64,000 bases of DNA from Candidatus Bathyarchaeota archaeon (GTDB lineage: Archaea; Thermoproteota; Bathyarchaeia; 40CM-2-53-6). A model generated the notes under the pieces. The model had not been told where the DNA came from, ran no database searches, and saw nothing but the letters and a program-made list of their open reading frames with translations. Positions 1,844 through 63,327 of the stretch are shown here, in pieces. Location of the stretch: the NCBI GenBank assembly GCA_963753065.1, contig CAVWAQ010000002.1:535-64534 (forward strand). The letters run 5' to 3'. The position numbers and the translations under genes were made by a program. Positions within the stretch are counted from its first letter, which is position 1, and each line of letters starts with the position of its first letter.

Positions 1844-2599
1844 ATGGAGCGCGTTTCATCCGGAGTCAAGGGATTGGACGAGATCCTAGAGGGAGGGTTC
1901 CCCAAGGCAAGGACGATCCTCATCGTGGGAAGCCCAGGATCAGGCAAGACGATTCTCGCGATCCAGTATCTGCGGGCTGGGGCCCTGAAGGGTGAACGTT
2001 CGATCTACGTCACATTCGACGAGAGGCCAGAACAGGTCAAGGAGAACATGTCTGCTTTCAGCTGGGACTTGGACGGGTTGGAGGGGGAAGGCAAGATCAT
2101 GTTCGTCGACGCGACTCCCTTCCGAAGGATGAAGGCGACCTCGACGATCGGGCCCGACGGACGACCAGACATACTCGCTCAGGATGCCTTGCCTGAGATC
2201 ACACTGCGTGCGCTCGTTGAGACCGTGAGGCGTCTTGCTGAGGAAGAGGGTGTGACGAGACTCGTCGTTGACCCGATTACTTCTCTTTCGGTTCGATATC
2301 AGTCGCCGATCAAAAGAAGGCGGGCGATGCTTATGCTCTTCGATGCTCTCTCGTCGACCGGTGCGACATGCCTCGTTAACAGCGAATTGAGAACTTCCAT
2401 GCTGACTCGAAGGTTCCAGCTTGAGGAGTATCTGTCGCAGGGCGTCGTGCTCATGCGAACGGGCATTCATGAAGGTAACGTCGTCAGGGCAGTTCAAGTG
2501 GAGAAGATGAGAGGCATCGCGCACGATACCCAACTGCGCCCATACACGATCGGTCAGAACGGGATCGAAGTCTTCGCGAAAGACAAAGTCTTCAAATGA
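1844..2599 (+). CDS. Single-domain KaiC-like (RecA-superfamily) ATPase
   Basis: The 251-aa ORF has GVKGLDEILEGGFPKARTILIVGSPGSGKTILAIQYL (Walker A) and a Walker B-like RLVVDPITS. This is the typical archaeal KaiC/RadA-like architecture. Confidence 0.85.
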   Translation: MERVSSGVKGLDEILEGGFPKARTILIVGSPGSGKTILAIQYLRAGALKGERSIYVTFDERPEQVKENMSAFSWDLDGLEGEGKIMFVDATPFRRMKATSTIGPDGRPDILAQDALPEITLRALVETVRRLAEEEGVTRLVVDPITSLSVRYQSPIKRRRAMLMLFDALSSTGATCLVNSELRTSMLTRRFQLEEYLSQGVVLMRTGIHEGNVVRAVQVEKMRGIAHDTQLRPYTIGQNGIEVFAKDKVFK

Positions 2600-2739
2600 C
2601 CACATAGGGCGAGCACAAGCTCTTGTTTCTAGAGATGAGCAAGCGGGGCCCTCAATAGTCATGTAGAGCCACAGCATGGAACTTGATTCTCTTCGCTTGG
2701 GTGGGCATTCCGTTGTTGCGGTTCCACCTGCATTCATCG
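2597..2739. repeat. Rearranged fragment (copy C) of the hairpin-unit/structured-element family
   Basis: 2597-2632 (TGACCACATAGGGCGAGCACAAGCTCTTGTTTCTAG) resembles the left half-unit and junction of copies A and B on the + strand. 2683-2739 carries the conserved core GGTGGAACCGCAACAACGGAATGCCCACC in the opposite orientation. It begins at the TGA stop of the KaiC-like gene. Confidence 0.6.
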
Positions 2740-4296: not shown

Positions 4297-4514
4297 CTAA
4301 CGGCGCTTCCGACCAGTGCCTCGGACAGAGTGGCTGTTCTATCCTCGGACTTCTGCGACTCTGCCCAGATCTCCAAAGTATGACGGGTATTGTTCTCTGC
4401 TGAACGCTATCCATGCTGCTCTCCGAATCCATATGCGGTTCGTTACTAAACGCTCTTGTAGTTGACACATCCCGGGGGGTAGAACAGTGGTAGGTGTCGC
4501 GAGAAACCCTTAAC

Positions 4515-4898
4515 TGATTCTCTTCGCGACTGAAGTCGCGGAGATTCATGCTTCCACCGCTGGTCCTTTGTTGGGTGGGCATTCCGTTGTTGCGGTTCCA
4601 CCCGCATCCATCCCAGCGCAGAAGCATAGGCCAAACCATCGGCCTGACGGCGTACCCGCCGCAGCGAGCCGCCATATTCACGACGCCTCTACCTACTCGA
4701 GCCTGCCCCGCCTATTTTCGGTTGAGAGCCTTTTTCGAGCCTTCGGACATCTCAACCACATCTGAGCCTACTGTCCCTTTTGGGATTGTCTCATTCGGCC
4801 CAGGAGATCCGGTGTGTGCGAGACATTTAAGCTGCAGGGGCTCGCTTACTCCACACCTAAAGTCGCGAGCTTGCGCTCCCCCCATTATGGTCAACTAT
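4515..4898 (-). repeat. Copy A: hairpin repeat unit interrupted by a structured insert of about 325 nt (candidate non-autonomous mobile element or ncRNA)
   Basis: The minus strand reads TGACCATAATGGGGGGAGCGCAAGCTCGCGACTTTAG | GTGTGGAGTAAGCGAGCCCC...GGTGGAACCGCAACAACGGAATGCCCACCC...GGAAGCATGAATCTCCGCGACTTCAG | TCGCGAAGAGAATCAG. The last ~190 nt are about 90% identical by eye to 58290-58466. Confidence 0.7.
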
Positions 4899-7073: not shown

Positions 7074-7150
7074 ACTGGAGGAAGTAGCTCATAGATGCAC
7101 TAAAAGATAATTAGGATCATCTGAGACCTGTTCGGATGTAGCCTCGGGTT

Positions 7151-7387
7151 TTGGAGCTGCAGCAAGTGGCCAAGCAGGTCTTGGAACGAACAAGCGAGAA
7201 GAAAACGCTAGAGGAAATTCTTGTACGAGTCAAAGCATTGCAGGATGCGCTTGAAGAGAACGAGATCGAAGCCATCTTGCGCGATCCCAAGTACAGGAGA
7301 GCACTGCGAGAAGCTGAGGGGGATGTCAAGTCTGGCAAAGAACGCCCCCTGCAGAGTTTCCTCAAAGACCTGAGTAAGAGAACTTGA
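7151..7387 (+). CDS. Type II antitoxin (small helical protein upstream of the RelE-like toxin)
   Basis: The 78-aa ORF has a TTG start and its stop overlaps the toxin start by 4 nt (7384-7387), which is typical TA operon geometry. Confidence 0.6.
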   Translation: MELQQVAKQVLERTSEKKTLEEILVRVKALQDALEENEIEAILRDPKYRRALREAEGDVKSGKERPLQSFLKDLSKRT

Positions 7388-7650
7388 CTCGAACGTACAG
7401 GATCCTGGTAACAAGTCGTTTCGAGAAAGACATCAGAAGATTGCCAAGTAGTGTGCAGCGCAGGATATCGGAAGTCTTGGAGCTAGTGGCACACAACCCT
7501 TTCGCCTTTGAGGTTCTCAGCGGGGAATTCAAAGGCTTGAGGAAAGTTCGGATCGGGGAATATCGTCTTATCTACAGAATCGACTCCGACAATGAAAGCA
7601 AGACAGTCCGTCTGCTGTTTATTGCCCATAGGCGCAGCGTCTATCGCTAG
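7384..7650 (+). CDS. relE: RelE/ParE-family type II toxin
   Basis: The 88-aa ORF has YRILVTSRFEKDIRRLP...LRKVRIGEYRLIYRIDSDNESKTVRLLFIAHRRSVY, matching the RelE/ParE signature (RxGdYRiiY...hRk.vY). Confidence 0.8.
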   Translation: MTRTYRILVTSRFEKDIRRLPSSVQRRISEVLELVAHNPFAFEVLSGEFKGLRKVRIGEYRLIYRIDSDNESKTVRLLFIAHRRSVYR

Positions 7651-18108: not shown

Positions 18109-18546
18109 GTGTCCGCTAAATGCAGTGGCGTCAACTACGCTCTCCGTTTTCATGAAAGGGCCATTCAGGTCCGGGCTAGACCATTCCGAGGCACAACTGT
18201 AGCCATAGAGACGGACAGAATCAAGTCGATCGAATTACTGAGAAAGAGCGTGATGCCTCCAGCGATGATTGGCGTCGTTTGTCTTTCATTAGGTCTGATT
18301 CTTGGAATTGCAGAAGACGAGTCTGTCGTAATTGTGCCAATTGGACTCCGCAGTGCATTGCAGTATCTGTTGATAGGAGCCGCTGCTATCTGCCTAGCAA
18401 TTCTGCTCTCCAGATGGTTCTTCAGCAATATGATCTTGAAGCGAGTCGATGCCCCACCGATCACCGTAAGGATGGTCCCAACCGGCAGCGCAAGGCGCTT
18501 CGTCATGCTGATCCAGGGCGAGACCCGCGGCGCCAAAGTGACTTAG
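18109..18546 (+). CDS. Small membrane protein (hypothetical)
   Basis: The 145-aa ORF has two hydrophobic segments (MIGVVCLSLGLILGI; LLIGAAAICLAILL) and fits a compact gene spacing. Confidence 0.45.
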   Translation: MSAKCSGVNYALRFHERAIQVRARPFRGTTVAIETDRIKSIELLRKSVMPPAMIGVVCLSLGLILGIAEDESVVIVPIGLRSALQYLLIGAAAICLAILLSRWFFSNMILKRVDAPPITVRMVPTGSARRFVMLIQGETRGAKVT

Positions 18547-18555
18547 CATGGAGGA

Positions 18556-19377
18556 TTGCTGTTGAGTCGAGAGTCGGAGAGAATCAAGGAAGGCGACAAG
18601 ATTCTCCTGTTCTGGGATCAACGAAGACAATGGCTTCTGAACGTGGAGAAGGAGAGGCAATTTCACACGCACAAAGGCGTCGTGAAACTGAGCGACGTGG
18701 TTGGAAAGAGGTACGGAGAGACCGTGCTGAGTTCGCTCGGGCTGGTTTTTCTGGTCTTACGGCCGACCACGTACGACTTTCTCGGTCATGTTGCACGTCC
18801 TACCCAAATCATGTACCCCAAGGACATTGGTCTCGTCCTGCTCAAACTCGGTCTCTCATCCGGCAAGATTGTCATCGAAGCAGGAACCGGTAGCGGTGCG
18901 ATGACTCTTGCAATGGCGAGCGCGATCAAGCCGGAGGGACATGTCTACTCCTACGAGATCCGCCCGAGTTTCATGGAGTCAGCTAGACGGGGCCTGAGGA
19001 GGGCCGGCCTTGACGAGTACGTGACGCTGGTACAGCGCGATGCAAAGGAGGGGTTCGAGCAGCGGGAGGTTGATGCAGCGCTCATCGACCTCGGGGAACC
19101 TTGGGCCGTGATTCCGCATGCGTGGGAGGCCCTGCGAGGAGGATCTCCAATCGGATCTTTCAGTCCGACGACGAACCAGGTGGAGCGAACAGTAATCAGT
19201 ATGCGTGGGAAATTCGCTAACATTCAAAGCCTCGAATGTTTCCTCCGCGAAATCCGTGCAGAAGAGGGCAAAACTAGGCCTGCGACGGTAATGACTGGAC
19301 ATACGGGTTACTTGACGTTCGCGAACAAGATCTATCCGTCTGAGCAGGAACGAGCCTCATCTCCGGAGCATGCGTAA
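18556..19377 (+). CDS. trmI: tRNA (adenine-N1)-methyltransferase, TrmI/Gcd14 family
   Basis: The 273-aa ORF has TQIMYPKDIGLVLLKLGL..GKIVIEAGTGSGAMTLAMA (SAM motif I) and the GHVYSYEIR..RDAKEG arrangement typical of TrmI. Confidence 0.85.
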   Translation: MLLSRESERIKEGDKILLFWDQRRQWLLNVEKERQFHTHKGVVKLSDVVGKRYGETVLSSLGLVFLVLRPTTYDFLGHVARPTQIMYPKDIGLVLLKLGLSSGKIVIEAGTGSGAMTLAMASAIKPEGHVYSYEIRPSFMESARRGLRRAGLDEYVTLVQRDAKEGFEQREVDAALIDLGEPWAVIPHAWEALRGGSPIGSFSPTTNQVERTVISMRGKFANIQSLECFLREIRAEEGKTRPATVMTGHTGYLTFANKIYPSEQERASSPEHA

Positions 19378-57720: not shown

Positions 57721-57951
57721 GTGAATCTGTTAATGTCCGAGGAAAGATCCGGTGGCAGATCCTTCAACAAGCCAGTTGAAGAGGGCAAAGAGTACGAGGT
57801 TGACATCAAAGAGACCAGCCGCAAAGGCGACGGTGTCGCCCGCGTGGAAGGCTTCGTCATCTTCGTCCCCGAGACCAAGCCTGGTGACCACGTGAAAGTG
57901 CGTGTTACTCAGGTCGGCCCCAGATTTGCAACCGCCGAGGTCGTCAAGTAG
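57721..57951 (+). CDS. TRAM-domain protein
   Basis: PVEEGKEYEVDIKETSRKGDGVARVEGFVIFVPETKPGDHVKVRVTQVGPRFATAEV is the canonical small archaeal TRAM sequence pattern. Confidence 0.75.
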   Translation: MNLLMSEERSGGRSFNKPVEEGKEYEVDIKETSRKGDGVARVEGFVIFVPETKPGDHVKVRVTQVGPRFATAEVVK

Positions 57952-58036
57952 ACGCCTCCTACAAAAACCACCGAACGTTTCGGTGCTGCAATACTCCATT
58001 TTTTCTTTCGACCTATTATGCGTGGGCTGGCTCCCA

Positions 58037-58473
58037 TGACCATGATGAGAGCGCGTGCAAGCTCCTCTCTTCAGACATGGAGTAAGCGAGCCCTCAGCAG
58101 TCTCAAGCGAGCGGCAGCATAGCCCCCAAACGAGCCATTGAGACTCGCGACGAACAGCACCCTGAACGCCAATTGTGGCCACGGTTGAATACATGACCAT
58201 AACTGGACGAGCGCAAGCTTCCGACTTCAGTCGCGGAGACAATCAAATGCAGTCTCTTGGATGGATTGTGGCTTAGAGGCGCACCGGGACGCAGTTGGCG
58301 TCTTGAATATAGCTGCTCGTTACGGCGAGTATGCTGTCAGGCCGATGGTTTGGCCTATGCTTCTACGATGGGATGGATGCGGGTGGAACCGCAACAGCGG
58401 AATGCCCACCAAGCGAAGAGGATCATTGTGGAAGCATGAATCCCCGCGACCTTTAGTCGCGGAGAGAGTCAAG
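58037..58473 (+). repeat. Copy B: hairpin half-unit + structured insert (with a nested intact hairpin unit at 58194-58246) + terminal hairpin
   Basis: TGACCATGATGAGAGCGCGTGCAAGCTCCTCTCTTCAG | ACATGGAGTAAGCGAGCCCTCAGCAG...GGTGGAACCGCAACAGCGGAATGCCCACC...GGAAGCATGAATCCCCGCGACCTTTAG | TCGCGGAGAGAGTCAAG. It is collinear with copy A. Confidence 0.7.
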
Positions 58474-58771
58474 ATTCAAGCAAGCCTATGTTCTGTAACT
58501 TCCGGACTCTGGTTTCATGGCCCGAAGTTTACCTCGGGGAGCCTTGGAAGCTAAAGGAAGAATAGGTCTAGGTTGGGGATGTCAAGAGAGGGAGCGGGTC
58601 AATCTGTCAATCGAACGAGTTCTATTCTCGTGTGCACCCCGGACGGGACTCCCAAGTGTTCAGCTAGGGAAGACCGTCAGAGTGTCGTTGCGGAGGCATT
58701 CATGGGCTGAATCGCGAGGGAAGAGAAAAGGTTATTTGTGGTATTTTGGCATAGCTCTGGCTGGTGGTAAA

Positions 58772-59038
58772 ATGGCACAGGTCGTCGAAAGTGACGCGTC
58801 AGGAAGGATAGTAATCCCGAAGACCGTGCGCCAGGCGCTGGGAATCAAGGGGAGGACGCGGTTCCTGCTCGTGGAGCGGGGCGAGGGTCAACTGATGCTC
58901 CAAAAACTCGAGGTTGATGAGATTGCACGTAGACTTGAGAGGGAGCTCGCTGGAAAGGACATCGATGCCATTGTTCGAAAAGTCAGAGAAGAAGTCAACA
59001 AGAAGATCAAGACCCAGTATCCGGACCTTCTTCGTTGA
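58772..59038 (+). CDS. AbrB/SpoVT-type antitoxin
   Basis: The internal ATG at 58772 is preceded by GGTGGT. DASGRIVIPKTVRQALGIKGRTRFLLVERGEGQLML is the AbrB-like signature. Confidence 0.8.
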   Translation: MAQVVESDASGRIVIPKTVRQALGIKGRTRFLLVERGEGQLMLQKLEVDEIARRLERELAGKDIDAIVRKVREEVNKKIKTQYPDLLR

Positions 59039-59450
59039 CAGCAACGTCTTCATCGCCGCCATAAAGAATCCGAGGAAGCGCACACGGACGCTCGAGCTAC
59101 TCATTAGGATGATCGAAGATCCAAGCATCAGTCTCGTTGGAAACGAGCTCCTCACATATGAGATGCTGCGCTACGCGGAGCTCCTGAAGTCCCCTATTGC
59201 CGCGGCTCTCGTTGCTGCTCTCCTTGACAAGACCGCCATTGTCTCAGTCTCGGAGAACTATCGGAGGGTATGTACGGCTTATCTCAAGACGCCTGACCCA
59301 GCAGACGTGCTACACGCCGCAACATGTCTCCAGGCCGGCGCAGTGCTAGTAACGAATGACCGCCACTTCAGAAGAATAAAGAAGAAAGGCATAATCGATG
59401 TCTGGACAATTGCAGAGGCAATCCGAAGGTTGATTAGCTCTTCGGAATGA
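58965..59450 (+). CDS. vapC: PIN-domain toxin (VapC-like); start uncertain
   Basis: The PIN motifs are FFVDSNVFIAA, GNELLTYE, DVLHAATCL...VTNDRHF. The nearest in-frame ATG is at 58965, overlapping the antitoxin. Confidence 0.7.
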   Translation: MPLFEKSEKKSTRRSRPSIRTFFVDSNVFIAAIKNPRKRTRTLELLIRMIEDPSISLVGNELLTYEMLRYAELLKSPIAAALVAALLDKTAIVSVSENYRRVCTAYLKTPDPADVLHAATCLQAGAVLVTNDRHFRRIKKKGIIDVWTIAEAIRRLISSSE

Positions 59451-59627
59451 ATGCTCCGCCGCATCAGAATTGGCGAACGTTGCCTCCTCCTTCACTTTCG
59501 ATATCGATGCTCGTGTGGTAGAAGCCTCGGTGTCCAAGCCGTGTGAGACGTGCTGCCGAAGGCTCTCCGCGCTATGACTGCGGATCCCGTTCTTGGAATC
59601 ATATTGCATCAACTGGAGTTGCAGGTC

Positions 59628-59696
59628 CTGACCATAACTGGCCGAGCGCAAGCTCCCGACTTCAGTCGAGGAGAGAATCAACAGTTGTGTCGGTCA
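59628..59696 (+). repeat. Intact hairpin repeat unit D
   Basis: The sequence is CTGACCATAACTGGCCGAGCGCAAGCTCCCGACTTCAGTCGAGGAGAGAATCAACAGTTGTGTCGGTCA. The central hairpin is CTCCCGAC-TTCA-GTCG(A)GGAG. Outer short inverted repeats are TGACC/GGTCA and AACTG/CAGTT. It lies between convergent TA modules and overlaps the vapC stop codon (59694-59696). Confidence 0.6.
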
Positions 59697-60074
59697 ATCG
59701 AATAGCTTCAACTCGTGTGCTCTTAGGGGTTTGAAGTGTCTAAGGTTCAGGGTGTATAAGCTTGCTCCGTTGTTGATCGTCACGGCGGCTATGATCGCAT
59801 CTGTTCTACGTATGGTTGTGCCGGCTTTCTCAGTCTCCGCCTCCAACTTGGCGGATAGTTGCGCGTCTTCTTTTCCGAAGCTTAGCACGGGTAACTGTAG
59901 AACTTCTCTTACGGGTTTAGCGTATTTGTGCAAGCCGTACATGATCTCGTGGAGGTTTATCGCGGTAATGCTGATCTTGTCGTCACTTTCAAGGATCTTT
60001 CTCAGGGCTTCATCGCCCTTCCCGGATCGTTTGTCGAAGATCTCAATCAGAACGCCGGTATCCAGTACTACCAT
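59694..60074 (-). CDS. vapC: PIN-domain toxin VapC
   Basis: The PIN signature is MVVLDTGVLIEIF...ITAINLHEIMYG...DAIIAAVTINNGASLYTLNLRHF. Confidence 0.85.
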   Translation of the reverse strand: MVVLDTGVLIEIFDKRSGKGDEALRKILESDDKISITAINLHEIMYGLHKYAKPVREVLQLPVLSFGKEDAQLSAKLEAETEKAGTTIRRTDAIIAAVTINNGASLYTLNLRHFKPLRAHELKLFD

Positions 60075-60283
60075 GTTCTGCGCTCGACTCTATGAGTTTG
60101 GATTTCTGAAAGCATTCGCTCCTTGTCCGTGAATTCGACGCATCCCCTGAGCTTCTTCAGGAGTTCCGGCGTGCTGATGTCTTCGGTGAGCCTTTCGAAT
60201 AGTTTGCTGAAGCTTTCGTCTCTTCTCTTGACCGCCAGGAGCTTCCTGTAAACTTCATCGCGTATCGTTATGGTCTTCGTCAA
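60068..60283 (-). CDS. vapB: VapB-like antitoxin (small ribbon-helix/DUF217-like)
   Basis: The 71-aa ORF begins MTKTITIRDEVYRKLLAVKRRDESFSKLFERL and overlaps the vapC start by 7 nt. Confidence 0.75.
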   Translation of the reverse strand: MTKTITIRDEVYRKLLAVKRRDESFSKLFERLTEDISTPELLKKLRGCVEFTDKERMLSEIQTHRVERRTW

Positions 60284-60447
60284 GGCTCCTCAATGGAGCG
60301 GGGATGTTTAAACATAGATTTAGACCCACGACCACGCTTCGCGCCCAGATTTCGCGCTTAGCTTCTTCCATGGAAAATATGTGCGCGTCTATGATCATGT
60401 CGACTCTACCGCCATCGATCGCACGTATGACATCATCATAATTCGTA

Positions 60448-60499
60448 GCCACGACTAGGCGAGTGCGAGCTCCCGACTTCAATCACGGAGAGAATCAAG
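60448..60499 (+). repeat. Degenerate hairpin repeat unit E
   Basis: GCCACGACTAGGCGAGTGCGAGCTCCCGACTTCAATCACGGAGAGAATCAAG is the same unit with a weakened 3' arm. It overlaps the stop of the 60495-60749 gene. Confidence 0.5.
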
Positions 60500-60749
60500 A
60501 AGTGAGCGGCAGGCCTGCGCAGCCGACCTTGCCTCTTACTCGTCTGTTGAAGTTGGGGCAAGTGAAACATTCGACGAAGGATACTCTCTTCGCCTTGACT
60601 GGGCAATCGACAGCTTCCTTCTTCATCTTCGCTAGAGCTTTGCCTTTCACTGCGCCCTTGATCGCTTCGAGACTATCTTTGGGTGTAGGGATCGCCTTCG
60701 GAACCTCTATGACGTCAACTGTGTACTTGTCTTCTGGGATTTCGCTCAA
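60495..60749 (-). CDS. Small Cys-containing protein (hypothetical)
   Basis: The 84-aa ORF has the pattern CPVKAKRVSFVECFTCPNFNRRVRGKVGC. Confidence 0.4.
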   Translation of the reverse strand: MSEIPEDKYTVDVIEVPKAIPTPKDSLEAIKGAVKGKALAKMKKEAVDCPVKAKRVSFVECFTCPNFNRRVRGKVGCAGLPLTS

Positions 60750-61628: not shown

Positions 61629-61689
61629 TCTTCATCACGGACTGCGCTCAAATCCTCTCGAATCACATCCTCCATATAGATAAGATAGA

Positions 61690-63109
61690 GGCTGGCCGAA
61701 AATTCATAGCGGTTGACTTGGTTGTGTCAACTGCGCTTCTTTTCGGTTTCTGGGCTCACTCGGTTCTGCGCCGAGTTCATCCCCAGCTTGGGCCAAGCCT
61801 ACTGTGGCCCTTCGGGTCGTGGCCAATGGCAAGAAACGCGACCCGATATTCAATGCGCCAACATAGTCCGCGTTGTAGATGAGCTCACAGCCCCAGCAGT
61901 GGAAGATGCTCTGCGTGGGACGGTCCGTGTTCCGTGAGCCGCAACGCGGACAAGTCATGCTCGTCCACCGCTCATCCACGACGCGGACGGGGATGCCGTG
62001 TTCAGCGCATTCTTCTTGGATGAAGCGTATGGCACGGCCATACGCCCACCCAGTCAACAGTCTACGCAGGTACGGCTTCCCGTTACCACGATATGCGCTA
62101 CGATACTTCAACAGCTTCGGGTGTCCGACCGCGACGAGCGTACGATTCGATAGATCCGCGACCTGTTTCGCCATGAGATGGTCATAGTATTCTGCCACGT
62201 GCATACGTTTGTGTCGGAGACGCTTCAGTGGTTCCCACTTTCGCGCCCGCTGCAGCTCCGCGATTCTGCGGTTCAACATTCGAAGACGGGCACGCTTCGT
62301 ACCACCCCGAACCGTCTTGAAGTCGTATCCTCCGAGCTGCTTCATGGCTACAGTTGCTACTGAGCGTTTCACGCCGAGGTCTATCCCGCGCACTGCATGG
62401 GCTGGCTGGTCGGGGACGCTGTACTCAACCTTCACATGAACGTAGTATTTGCCATCGCGTTTCACAAGCTGGAAGCTCTTCAAGTCACTCTTCGACAGCA
62501 GATCCAGATGGTACATCGCAGGATTCAGTGGAATTGTGAGCTTTGCGCCTCTTCGCAGCGTGGAGACACGTGCGACGCACGGGCATAGTTTCGCCCTCTC
62601 AGATTTCTCGATAGAGCCGAGTTGGCTGTCGAACCATATTGGAACCTTACGGCGCATGCCTTTCGTGAATGGCTTCTGGGGTTCACGTTTCAGCAGCCGC
62701 CGCAGCCATCGCCAATCTCCGTTCCGTCTCGCTTCGGCGACCTGCCGTCGCCATTTACGATGCAGTGTCCTGTAGCTGCTCCACATCCACTTCGTCGTAT
62801 CGTAGCAGCATTGAACCATATGTCCAGGCAGATGCGTCTCAGCCTTCACCTGTTCGTAGAACCGCGCCCTATCCGCATAGGTGCCTTCCAGGTTGTACTC
62901 ATCGAACCGTTTCGACCAGAGACAAACACCATATGTCAGTCGAGCCGTGAGCTTGTCGAGGATGCAGCGTTTCCGCTCCGTTAACGCGTAGTGAACCGGC
63001 ACACAAACAGTCTTGACAACCTGCAAGGCTGACAATTCCTTCTAGTTGAAGTTTAAATGGGCGAGAGATGAGTGAAGATTAACACGTCAGTGGCGATTTC
63101 CGGCCAGCC
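61690..63109 (-). mobile_element. TIR-bounded 1,420-bp element carrying only a tnpB gene
   Basis: GGCTGGCCGAAAAT (61690-61703) and ATTTCCGGCCAGCC (63096-63109) are inverted repeats matching at 13 of 14 positions. One lies immediately outside the tnpB stop and the other about 60 nt upstream of its start. There is no tnpA. An ATTTAAAC TATA-like box (complement 63058-63051) lies inside the element. Confidence 0.65.
61704..63035 (-). CDS. tnpB: TnpB (IS200/IS605 OrfB-family RuvC-like RNA-guided nuclease)
   Basis: The 443-aa ORF has a TTG start. RuvC-I is RGIDLGVKR, RuvC-II is VRVVDERWTS, the zinc finger is CPRCG...CWGC, and RuvC-III is NADYVGALNI. Confidence 0.9.
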   Translation of the reverse strand: MSALQVVKTVCVPVHYALTERKRCILDKLTARLTYGVCLWSKRFDEYNLEGTYADRARFYEQVKAETHLPGHMVQCCYDTTKWMWSSYRTLHRKWRRQVAEARRNGDWRWLRRLLKREPQKPFTKGMRRKVPIWFDSQLGSIEKSERAKLCPCVARVSTLRRGAKLTIPLNPAMYHLDLLSKSDLKSFQLVKRDGKYYVHVKVEYSVPDQPAHAVRGIDLGVKRSVATVAMKQLGGYDFKTVRGGTKRARLRMLNRRIAELQRARKWEPLKRLRHKRMHVAEYYDHLMAKQVADLSNRTLVAVGHPKLLKYRSAYRGNGKPYLRRLLTGWAYGRAIRFIQEECAEHGIPVRVVDERWTSMTCPRCGSRNTDRPTQSIFHCWGCELIYNADYVGALNIGSRFLPLATTRRATVGLAQAGDELGAEPSEPRNRKEAQLTQPSQPL

Positions 63110-63327
63110 TAAAGATGCTTTGGCGACTGGCGAATCGGGCGGGTCGTGGTTTCTGGCAATCGACGCTTGCAGAGTGGCTGCGTGTTCATGTGTTTCGGGG
63201 TTCGCGCCAAATTCCCTGCTCAGTCATATGGTTGGTCCAAGAAGAGCTTTTATGTGACTGAATCAGTGGAACGTCGAACTTCCACGAACAAGGTGTGGGC
63301 ATAAGTTTGGCATGGGCATTTGAGGAC

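Follow-up and report, generated by a model that had tools for sequence, protein, structure and literature searches.

Near the right end of a 64-kb stretch of Bathyarchaeia DNA (64,000 nucleotides, the whole of which is referred to as the window), short hairpin repeats in the same orientation separate small toxin-antitoxin (TA) operons. An earlier note on this DNA had compared the layout with integron cassette arrays that lack an integrase, or with mobile TA cassettes bounded by miniature inverted-repeat transposable elements (MITEs). What are these repeats, and do they carry the TA genes from place to place? The units are very probably relics of an insertion sequence (IS) of the IS200/IS605 family which is abundant in Bathyarchaeia. 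As read from the alignments described below, each unit of the window is a hybrid of the left end (LE) and the right end (RE) of this IS around a single hairpin, with the 5′ part of the LE up to the hairpin being continued by the RE hairpin up to the terminal TCAA.

Repeat units and their parent element

The core pattern CTCCCGACTTCAGTCGNGGAGAGAATCAA, with up to three mismatches allowed, was matched three times in the 64-kb window, compared to no match in 100 shuffles. A repeat search yielded one family with three 53-nt direct copies, located at 58194-58246 (unit B1), 59629-59681 (unit D; 92%) and 60446-60498 (unit E; 77%). It also revealed a fourth copy of the 22-nt tail at 58451-58472 (B2), which belongs to a related hairpin end at 58441-58472; the latter had been thought to extend to 58473. 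The existence of a family of 53-nt repeat units between the TA genes was thus confirmed, and so was the nature of these genes. Pfam matches identified an AbrB/MazE-type antitoxin gene (58772-59038; PF04014) and a PIN toxin open reading frame (ORF) reaching to 59450 (PF01850) on the plus strand, as well as vapC (59694-60074; PF01850) and vapB (60068-60283; PF02697) on the opposite strand.

In units B1, D and E, the 5′ 35 nt match the LE and the 3′ 18 nt match the RE of the IS; the 3′ part consists of half of the hairpin plus AGAATCAA. Unit B1 (plus strand) comprises TGAC at 58194-58197 and a 49-nt LE/RE hybrid at 58198-58246. Its 5′ part is matched at about 90% by the LE of L009 and L001 (L numbers designate the loci used for comparison), and its 3′ part matches the RE of all loci. 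Unit D, on the same strand and located between the convergent PIN and vapC genes, is composed likewise of TGAC (59629-59632) and a 49-nt hybrid (59633-59681). Unit E, also on the plus strand, is an old hybrid. Its RE tail GGAGAGAATCAA is intact, its TGAC and LE part are decayed by transitions, and its hairpin is broken, with ATCAC replacing GTCGN. Unit E of L107 and L113 has a similar decayed 5′ part and the identical broken hairpin.

A central hairpin had been claimed for each unit. It is indeed present, but broken in unit E, and its stability does not exceed that of shuffles. The unit stem comprises only 8 bp in a single hairpin, and the folding z-scores of the three units ranged from -0.2 to -0.55. 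When folded as single-stranded DNA, only 58441-58472 was more stable than shuffles (z = -4.0). No Rfam match was obtained anywhere in the window at gathering thresholds, and ARAGORN found no tRNA in it.

Motifs of the form GGA(C/G)AGAATCAA, which resemble the unit tail, flank a small membrane-protein ORF at 18213-18224 and 18576-18587. These GGAGAGAATCAA-like motifs were considered as a further element ('element A') and rejected, as neither the IS nor the MITE is similar to them; the resemblance to the unit tail is probably due to chance.

The parent of the units was searched for by scanning one genome per prokaryotic species with the hairpin-tail pattern. All nine loci obtained belong to metagenome-assembled genomes (MAGs) of Bathyarchaeia, seven of them to different contigs of one MAG. 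In each of the nine loci a longer conserved element ends with the motif, which makes up its final ~30 nt; in L005, L006 and L007 this element directly follows the zinc-finger/RuvC-III coding sequence of a TnpB protein of 443 amino acids. In L005 (1441-2772), PF01385 (OrfB_IS605) and PF07282 (TNB domain) were matched, and the stop codon is located 31 nt before the TCAA end.

When metagenomes were scanned for the LE pattern, at least 120 loci were listed. The LE reads TGAC/CATAACTGGGCGAGCG-CAAG-(CTCCCGAC TTCTG GTCGTGGAG)TAAGCGAGC, and was seen in L009 and L003 as TGAC/CATAACTGGGCGAGCGCAAG(CTCCCGAC TTCTG GTCGTGGAG)TAAGCGAGC. The RE reads GAAT-(CTCCCGAC TTCA GTCGNGGAG)AGAA-TCAA/ (hairpins in brackets, element edges marked by slashes). 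At both ends the hairpins are subterminal and in direct orientation, and terminal inverted repeats are absent, as is the case in members of the IS200/IS605 family. The same 55-nt LE module precedes different interiors, namely the MITE, tnpB or a Y1 transposase gene. Among the matches listed, the ~376-nt MITE interior was by far the commonest form, and tnpB interiors belonged to at least two lineages. The ORF that directly follows the LE in L047/L126 matches PF01797 (Y1_Tnp; E = 2e-16); a further Y1_Tnp match (E = 1e-24) lies beside tnpB in L045. In the window, tblastn with TnpA fragments revealed no similarity to tnpA or a Y1 transposase.

A complete ~376-nt MITE is present on the minus strand of the window (4514-4889, with TGAC at 4890-4893) and consists of an LE, an omega-RNA-like region and an RE ending in TCAG. 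Its identity is 91% with L009 265-640 as well as with dozens of copies from metagenomes. More than 40 copies of the MITE, with ~90% identity and different flanks, were found on freshwater-sediment metagenome contigs; LE and RE are both present, and a coding gene is absent. No Rfam family was matched by 4514-4893. The copy in the window shows that the IS family is dispersed in the source genome. A decayed LE after TGAC (2596-2659, plus strand) and an inverted RE-region fragment (2684-2738, minus strand) were observed at the 3′ end of a KaiC-like gene (1844-2599).

The ~376-nt element resembles the palindrome-associated transposable elements (PATEs) of Haloquadratum walsbyi (PMC3119063) and Geobacillus (PMC10055086), in that it contains an LE, an omega-RNA-scaffold-like region and an RE but no gene, and occurs in dozens of copies. 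The 49-nt units, by contrast, are far shorter than PATEs, contain a single hairpin flanked by an LE 5′ half and an RE 3′ half, and are not two-ended. They look like collapse products, not like complete two-ended PATEs.

Target site, guides and formation of the hybrids

The exact limits of conservation are TGAC on the left and TCAA on the right. In the sequence preceding TGAC (60 non-redundant flanks of LEs and 23 of hybrids), the information content was close to zero, as it was after TCAA in 27 non-redundant right flanks of hybrids; TGAC itself reached 1.9-2.0 bits in the 60 LE flanks. Further, two pairs of empty and filled sites were compared. In the first pair, L137 and L130 contain ...atcT(G/C)AC/gactcaagc, and the 49-nt hybrid of L037 is placed exactly between the two halves. 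In the second pair, L003 contains ...TTGAC/gacgatagcgg, and in the window TGAC is separated from gaagtgagcgg by 2462 nt (58037-60498). Neither pair shows a target duplication. Given these two comparisons, TGAC is the insertion target, and nothing is duplicated upon insertion.

IS608 recognises its cleavage sites TTAC (LE) and TCAA (RE) by means of the guides AAAG and GAAT, respectively, which are located just 5′ of the hairpins, and the LE site is 19 nt away from the hairpin foot (PMC3201880, PMC5934647). The published pairings are those of guide base 1 with site base 2 and of guide base 2 with site base 1 (same references). To these we add, by inference, a pair between the two fourth bases, which agrees with both IS608 pairs. 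In the family described here, GAAT immediately precedes the stem of the RE, and TCAA forms its end, both being identical to IS608. In the LE, CAAG precedes the stem at a distance of 20 nt from TGAC, and would pair with TGAC by the IS608 rule as G:C, T:A and C:G. The rule thus predicts the TGAC target that is confirmed by the flanks. TGAC is likely to serve as target-adjacent motif of TnpB as well.

With respect to its overall organization, the family corresponds to IS608 of Helicobacter pylori and to ISDra2: its members include a Y1 HUH transposase gene and tnpB, they have subterminal hairpins without terminal inverted repeats, and they insert 3′ of a fixed tetranucleotide without target duplication. 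As in IS608, an RE ending with TCAA is combined with a GAAT guide, and the LE guide is complementary to the target. Unlike in IS608, the target is TGAC instead of TTAC and the host is an archaeon (Bathyarchaeia). Two further differences from both IS608 and ISDra2 are the shared LE module in front of several interiors, and the near-identity of the LE and RE hairpins, which have an identical arm of 11 nt. This near-identity appears to make the collapse of elements by LE × RE joining frequent.

Among the metagenome loci listed, 66 LEs, 56 REs and 38 hybrids were counted, all of them scattered beside all kinds of genes. Common to LE and RE are CTCCCGACTTC (11 nt), followed by GTCG and GGAG, and most of the hybrid crossovers lie within the 11-nt identical 5′ arm. 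Among the hybrids, bulge variants A and C of the RE are represented in roughly the same proportions as among true REs. Both tail variants, AGAATCAA and AGAGTCAA, occur as well, and most hybrids have the RE-type loop, with an LE-type loop or bulge in a few. This spectrum of variants would fit repeated, independent LE × RE joining in the longest identical run, not the amplification of one lineage. The nearly identical hairpins would allow short-homology recombination between LE and RE, or replication slippage, to collapse an element into a hybrid, and DNA between two elements might be collapsed in the same way. Replication slippage or microhomology recombination at the hairpin would be the simplest mechanism.

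A similar process is known from solo long terminal repeats (LTRs) and from recombination between IS copies (IS26 translocatable units), where recombination between the direct repeats that border a mobile element leaves one hybrid repeat. As with copies of the IS26 type, repeated ends would serve as portable homology, through which the intervening DNA is deleted or relocated. Unlike in these systems, the shared repeat is only the ~21-nt hairpin; hence the process would have to use microhomology or slippage, not long-homology recombination.

The hybrids keep the LE-type guide CAAG and lack GAAT. Because the RE guide is missing, their TCAA end is probably not cleavable, and cleavage at TCAA by TnpA is predicted to be improbable. 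Most likely, the hybrids are immobile scars. Assembly chimeras were considered as a source of the hybrids and rejected, because the 11-nt run of identity between LE and RE is far shorter than assembler k-mer sizes and because the variants recur in independent samples.

Strain variants and competing explanations

The arrangement of units and TA genes was compared between strains. That of L113 and L132 equals that of the window. In L087, L103, L131, L134 and L135, AbrB-PIN is present and unit D runs directly into the small gene located beyond unit E, without VapBC. AbrB-PIN without vapBC was also found in L029 and L076, with a junction different from that of L087/L103. In L107, B1 leads directly into vapC, without AbrB-PIN, and in L067 and L133 unit D is fused ~100 nt into vapC. 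The surviving unit is chimeric in two of the three event types, combining the 5′ part of D with the 3′ part of E (L029/L076), or the 5′ part of B1 with the 3′ part of D (L107). In L029/L076, the crossover is located in the longest identical run of D and E (14 nt); that of L087/L103 is located in the second-longest run (12 nt) or at the 3′ edge of the unit. As the crossovers that can be placed fall where the two units are identical over the longest stretches, they point to a homology-driven exchange inside the units, not to cleavage at fixed edges or to site-specific recombination. The presence or absence of individual TA pairs bounded exactly by the units had been proposed as a check. Related strains do lack single TA pairs, with breakpoints inside the units.

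The units are neither needed between TA pairs nor specific to them. In L130 (an NCBI MAG) and in L137, AbrB-PIN is located after another AbrB-PIN pair with only a bare T(G/C)AC in between. TA-type Pfam families accounted for seven of 35 ORFs beside non-redundant hybrids, compared to about eight of 46 beside intact LEs (loci listed; crude ORF picking, small samples), that is, for ~17-20% of the neighbours of hybrids and intact ends alike. Glycosyltransferases, dehydrogenases, transporters and others were found among the remaining neighbours. Units therefore occur beside all sorts of genes irrespective of cassette content, which contradicts the cassette array postulated in the earlier note. As for MITE-bounded TA cassettes, it is correct that the units stem from IS or MITE ends, but the crossovers look homology-driven, and a special link to TA genes is not seen. 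The idea that the TA genes are cargo proper, enclosed by a genuine LE on one side and a genuine RE on the other, was considered but not supported, because unit E has an LE-type 5′ part and not the RE guide.

Taken together, the TA operons would be ordinary neighbours, and ISs would have landed in TGAC sites between them. The repeated ends would then act as portable homology, such that AbrB-PIN or VapBC could be deleted or re-inserted by unit-by-unit recombination. The outcome would be a cassette-like pattern of presence and absence without a dedicated cassette recombinase. The picture is that of a Bathyarchaeia IS200/IS605 family whose two ends have one hairpin in common, and which would repeatedly collapse to 49-nt recombinogenic scars. 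Scars, MITEs and full copies would provide portable homology by which accessory genes, TA pairs included, are reshuffled among close strains. This reading removes a tempting false lead, namely an archaeal integron-like array without integrase, and should be useful for scans for attC-like repeats. For the annotation of Bathyarchaeia genomes, the ends of the family, its TGAC target and its MITE are now defined; knowledge of how IS200/IS605 transposons work is unchanged.

Runs of TA-type pairs (PIN, VapB-like, nucleotidyltransferase, AbrB-like) with hybrids between them were also observed in the Bathyarchaeia loci L078 (3599-6977) and L089 (9033-10813). The layout is therefore not unique to the window. 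In the PIN ORF of the window (58914-59450), none of the start codons ATG, GTG and TTG occurs close to where the PIN domain begins (~59031). The sole upstream start is the TTG at 58914, which overlaps abrB by 125 nt, and public calls range from 113 to 161 amino acids. Exact-protein look-ups for CofE and VapC gave no match.

Several points weigh against the interpretation of the units as IS scars that merely provide homology. The mechanism proposed for hybrid formation draws entirely on sequence patterns. Within the window, tnpA was looked for and not detected. The contigs used for comparison are metagenome assemblies in which joins at repeats could be chimeric, although the key variants recur in independent samples. 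The chimeric units do not tell the direction of an event, that is, whether it was a deletion or an insertion at a unit. The proportion of 17-20% TA neighbours applies to the whole IS family and stands without a genome-wide baseline of TA density. Finally, the AbrB-PIN genes are 98-99% identical and their noncoding flanks 92-98% identical between contigs, versus 88-90% in neighbouring core genes, and the AbrB-PIN block (58474-59459) occurs in at least four contexts (L130, L137, L037, L108 and L136 compared). The conservation of AbrB-PIN in several contexts suggests recent spread and hints at a movement more active than random recombination.

Such movement would be expected if the 49-nt hybrids were working mini-transposons (minimal PATEs) moved in trans by the Y1 transposase, with direct pairs of units mobilising TA genes in the manner of composite IS200/IS605 elements. 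Apart from the conservation of the AbrB-PIN block in its various contexts, the number of hybrids (38 vs 66 LEs) with their diverse flanks, the clean filled/empty pair without target duplication and the hybrids between the TA pairs of L078 and L089 are in line with this idea. We nevertheless consider it unlikely. The hybrids have one hairpin with the LE-type guide CAAG, and their TCAA is without the GAAT guide that the IS608 code demands. The full diversity of RE variants and the several crossover positions fit repeated formation instead of one lineage, and internal chimeras remained after TA loss in two of the three event types. Moreover, the neighbours of hybrids are mostly ordinary genes. 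The filled/empty pair is equally expected from a full insertion followed by collapse, and the same site is used by a MITE in L136 and by a genuine RE in the window.

Repetitive extragenic palindromic (REP) elements derive from IS200/IS605-like ends. Like REP elements and REPINs, which are associated with RAYT genes, the units are short hairpin repeats related to such ends and dispersed between genes. As happened to REP elements in bacteria, the units might have been recruited for a role at the RNA level where TA operons end, be it as terminators, as processing sites or as stabilisers of mRNA, and both the position of unit D between convergent genes and the stop codon which unit E supplies to the gene at 60495-60749 would suit such a function. 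This possibility is very unlikely, however, in view of the following observations: (i) no T-run follows the hairpins; (ii) a terminator and promoter scan gave nothing at the units, whose hairpins are no more stable than shuffles; (iii) the stem of unit E has decayed without compensating changes in all three strains carrying this unit; (iv) the positions of the units relative to genes vary. Unlike REP elements and REPINs, the units are single and in direct orientation instead of forming doublets, they adjoin a TGAC target, and active parent ISs and MITEs remain; no RAYT gene was found in the window, and there is no sign of a host function.

Little credence can be given to a third alternative, in which the hybrids would be true Y1 recombination sites of an integron-like cassette system run by an HUH transposase and not by a tyrosine recombinase. 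Because each hybrid keeps the TGAC cleavage site and the cognate LE guide, two hybrids could synapse LE-to-LE. TnpA would cut 3′ of both TGACs to release a single-stranded circle consisting of one unit plus the TA genes, one unit being left behind, and in the reverse reaction the circle would be inserted at any resident unit.

Archaeal integrons, and clusters of attC sites lacking an integron integrase (CALINs), that are rich in TA cassettes exist (PMC9668308). With this precedent, same-orientation units between small TA operons and the strain-dependent presence of single TA segments could be taken for attC-like sites separating gene cassettes. That interpretation can practically be dismissed, since the units are homologous to the LE and RE of an IS200/IS605 element, have an 8-bp stem that folds no better than shuffles without a long palindrome spanning the site, and show placeable crossovers inside the unit, in identical runs, in two of the three event types. 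Neither R''-L''/L'-R' palindromes nor a GTTRRRY core are present, and with no conservation outside TGAC...TCAA (including the 27 right flanks), there are no R''/R' boxes. The supposed ATAAC box is internal to the LE of the IS; the GTTGT box and the outer inverted repeats ascribed to unit D are located in the unique flank beyond 59681 and are missing in the other units. TA pairs are adjacent without a unit in L130 and L137. Among the 30 window ORFs of 200-455 amino acids, none matched PF00589, and thus neither IntI nor any other tyrosine recombinase was found.

The island at 58037-60498 and neighbouring elements

Seen as a whole, 58037-60498 is a mosaic riddled with ISs, which occupies one TGAC site between a TRAM gene and a small gene. 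Its left edge is the TGAC target at 58033-58036 (plus strand). When L003 960-1110 was aligned to window positions 57935-58040 and 60490-60560, this target proved to be uninterrupted in L003, whose site is empty. Adjacent to the TGAC of the window, on the same strand, is the left end of a tnpB subfamily (LE0; 58037-58101) with the hairpin CTCCTCTC TTCAGA CATGGAG. LE0 is 90% identical to L005 1445-1512, a region just upstream of the complete tnpB. The stretch between LE0 and B1 (58102-58193, plus strand) is common only to the syntenic strains L107, L035 and L087.

Downstream of B1, positions 58247-58472 (plus strand) represent a 5′-truncated IS remnant which is 89.6% identical to L005 2597-2804. 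It contains a relic of the C-terminal tnpB coding region (~58262-58419) including the zinc finger (...CGLEAHRDAVGVLNIAAR...), with 75% over 64 amino acids in tblastn against TnpB, and the expected omega-RNA scaffold region. It is terminated by a genuine RE with a GAAT guide, a hairpin (58442-58464) and TCAA (58469-58472). The fusion of B1 to the middle of the tnpB relic would best be explained by a nested insertion and subsequent LE × RE collapse. The genuine RE, B2, is located at a TGAC site which is empty in L130/L137 and bears a hybrid in L037; at the matching TGAC site of L136 a MITE is present.

At 58590-58685 (plus strand), a degenerate copy of the vapC 3′ end comes after a vestigial RE tail, GGAGCGGGTCAA. 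The recurrence of this gene end at 58604-58640 had been recognized before and proved to be longer, since 58590-58685 aligns locally with 59669-59755; the copy was also retrieved in the repeat search as a family. In L137 and L130, AbrB-PIN is located upstream of the TRAM gene, that is, on the side opposite to its downstream location in the window. For this reason, recombination between IS copies that occupied different TGAC sites seems to have produced the gene order of the window.

The region 60284-60445 (minus strand) is the 3′ fragment of a small, conserved gene (...YDDVIRAIDGGRVDMIIDAHIFSMEEAKREIW...) that is interrupted by unit E. Homologous fragments exist in L001, L071 and L078, and no Pfam family was matched by the fragment in the window. 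The encoded protein (...WYDxHWN...YDDIxRAIxDGRLDxxIDEHxRYMKET...; L001 6144-6400, L071, L078) recurs beside ends of this IS family. On its right side, the island ends with the TCAA of unit E, which also provides the stop codon for the small cysteine-containing gene at 60495-60749 (minus strand). This gene encodes 84 amino acids compared to 94 in the ORF of the empty-site locus L003, and the insertion thus replaced its C-terminus.

L107 carries an additional 359-nt element at ~7105-7465 (oriented; corresponding to window position ~58030), with inverted-repeat ends CTGTTAAC...GTTAACAG and a GGTTCC duplication. It is inserted a few bases before LE0, which is another sign of an intergenic insertion hot spot. 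Finally, a second, unrelated tnpB element was detected at 61688-63111, with its tnpB ORF at 61704-63035 (minus strand). It is bordered by imperfect terminal inverted repeats of 15 bp (AGGCTGGCCGAAAAT / ATTTCCGGCCAGCCT) and an apparent 6-bp target duplication (AAGATA / AAGATG), which are unexpected for tnpB elements of the IS200/IS605 type. The element is precisely absent in L067, L087 and L103.

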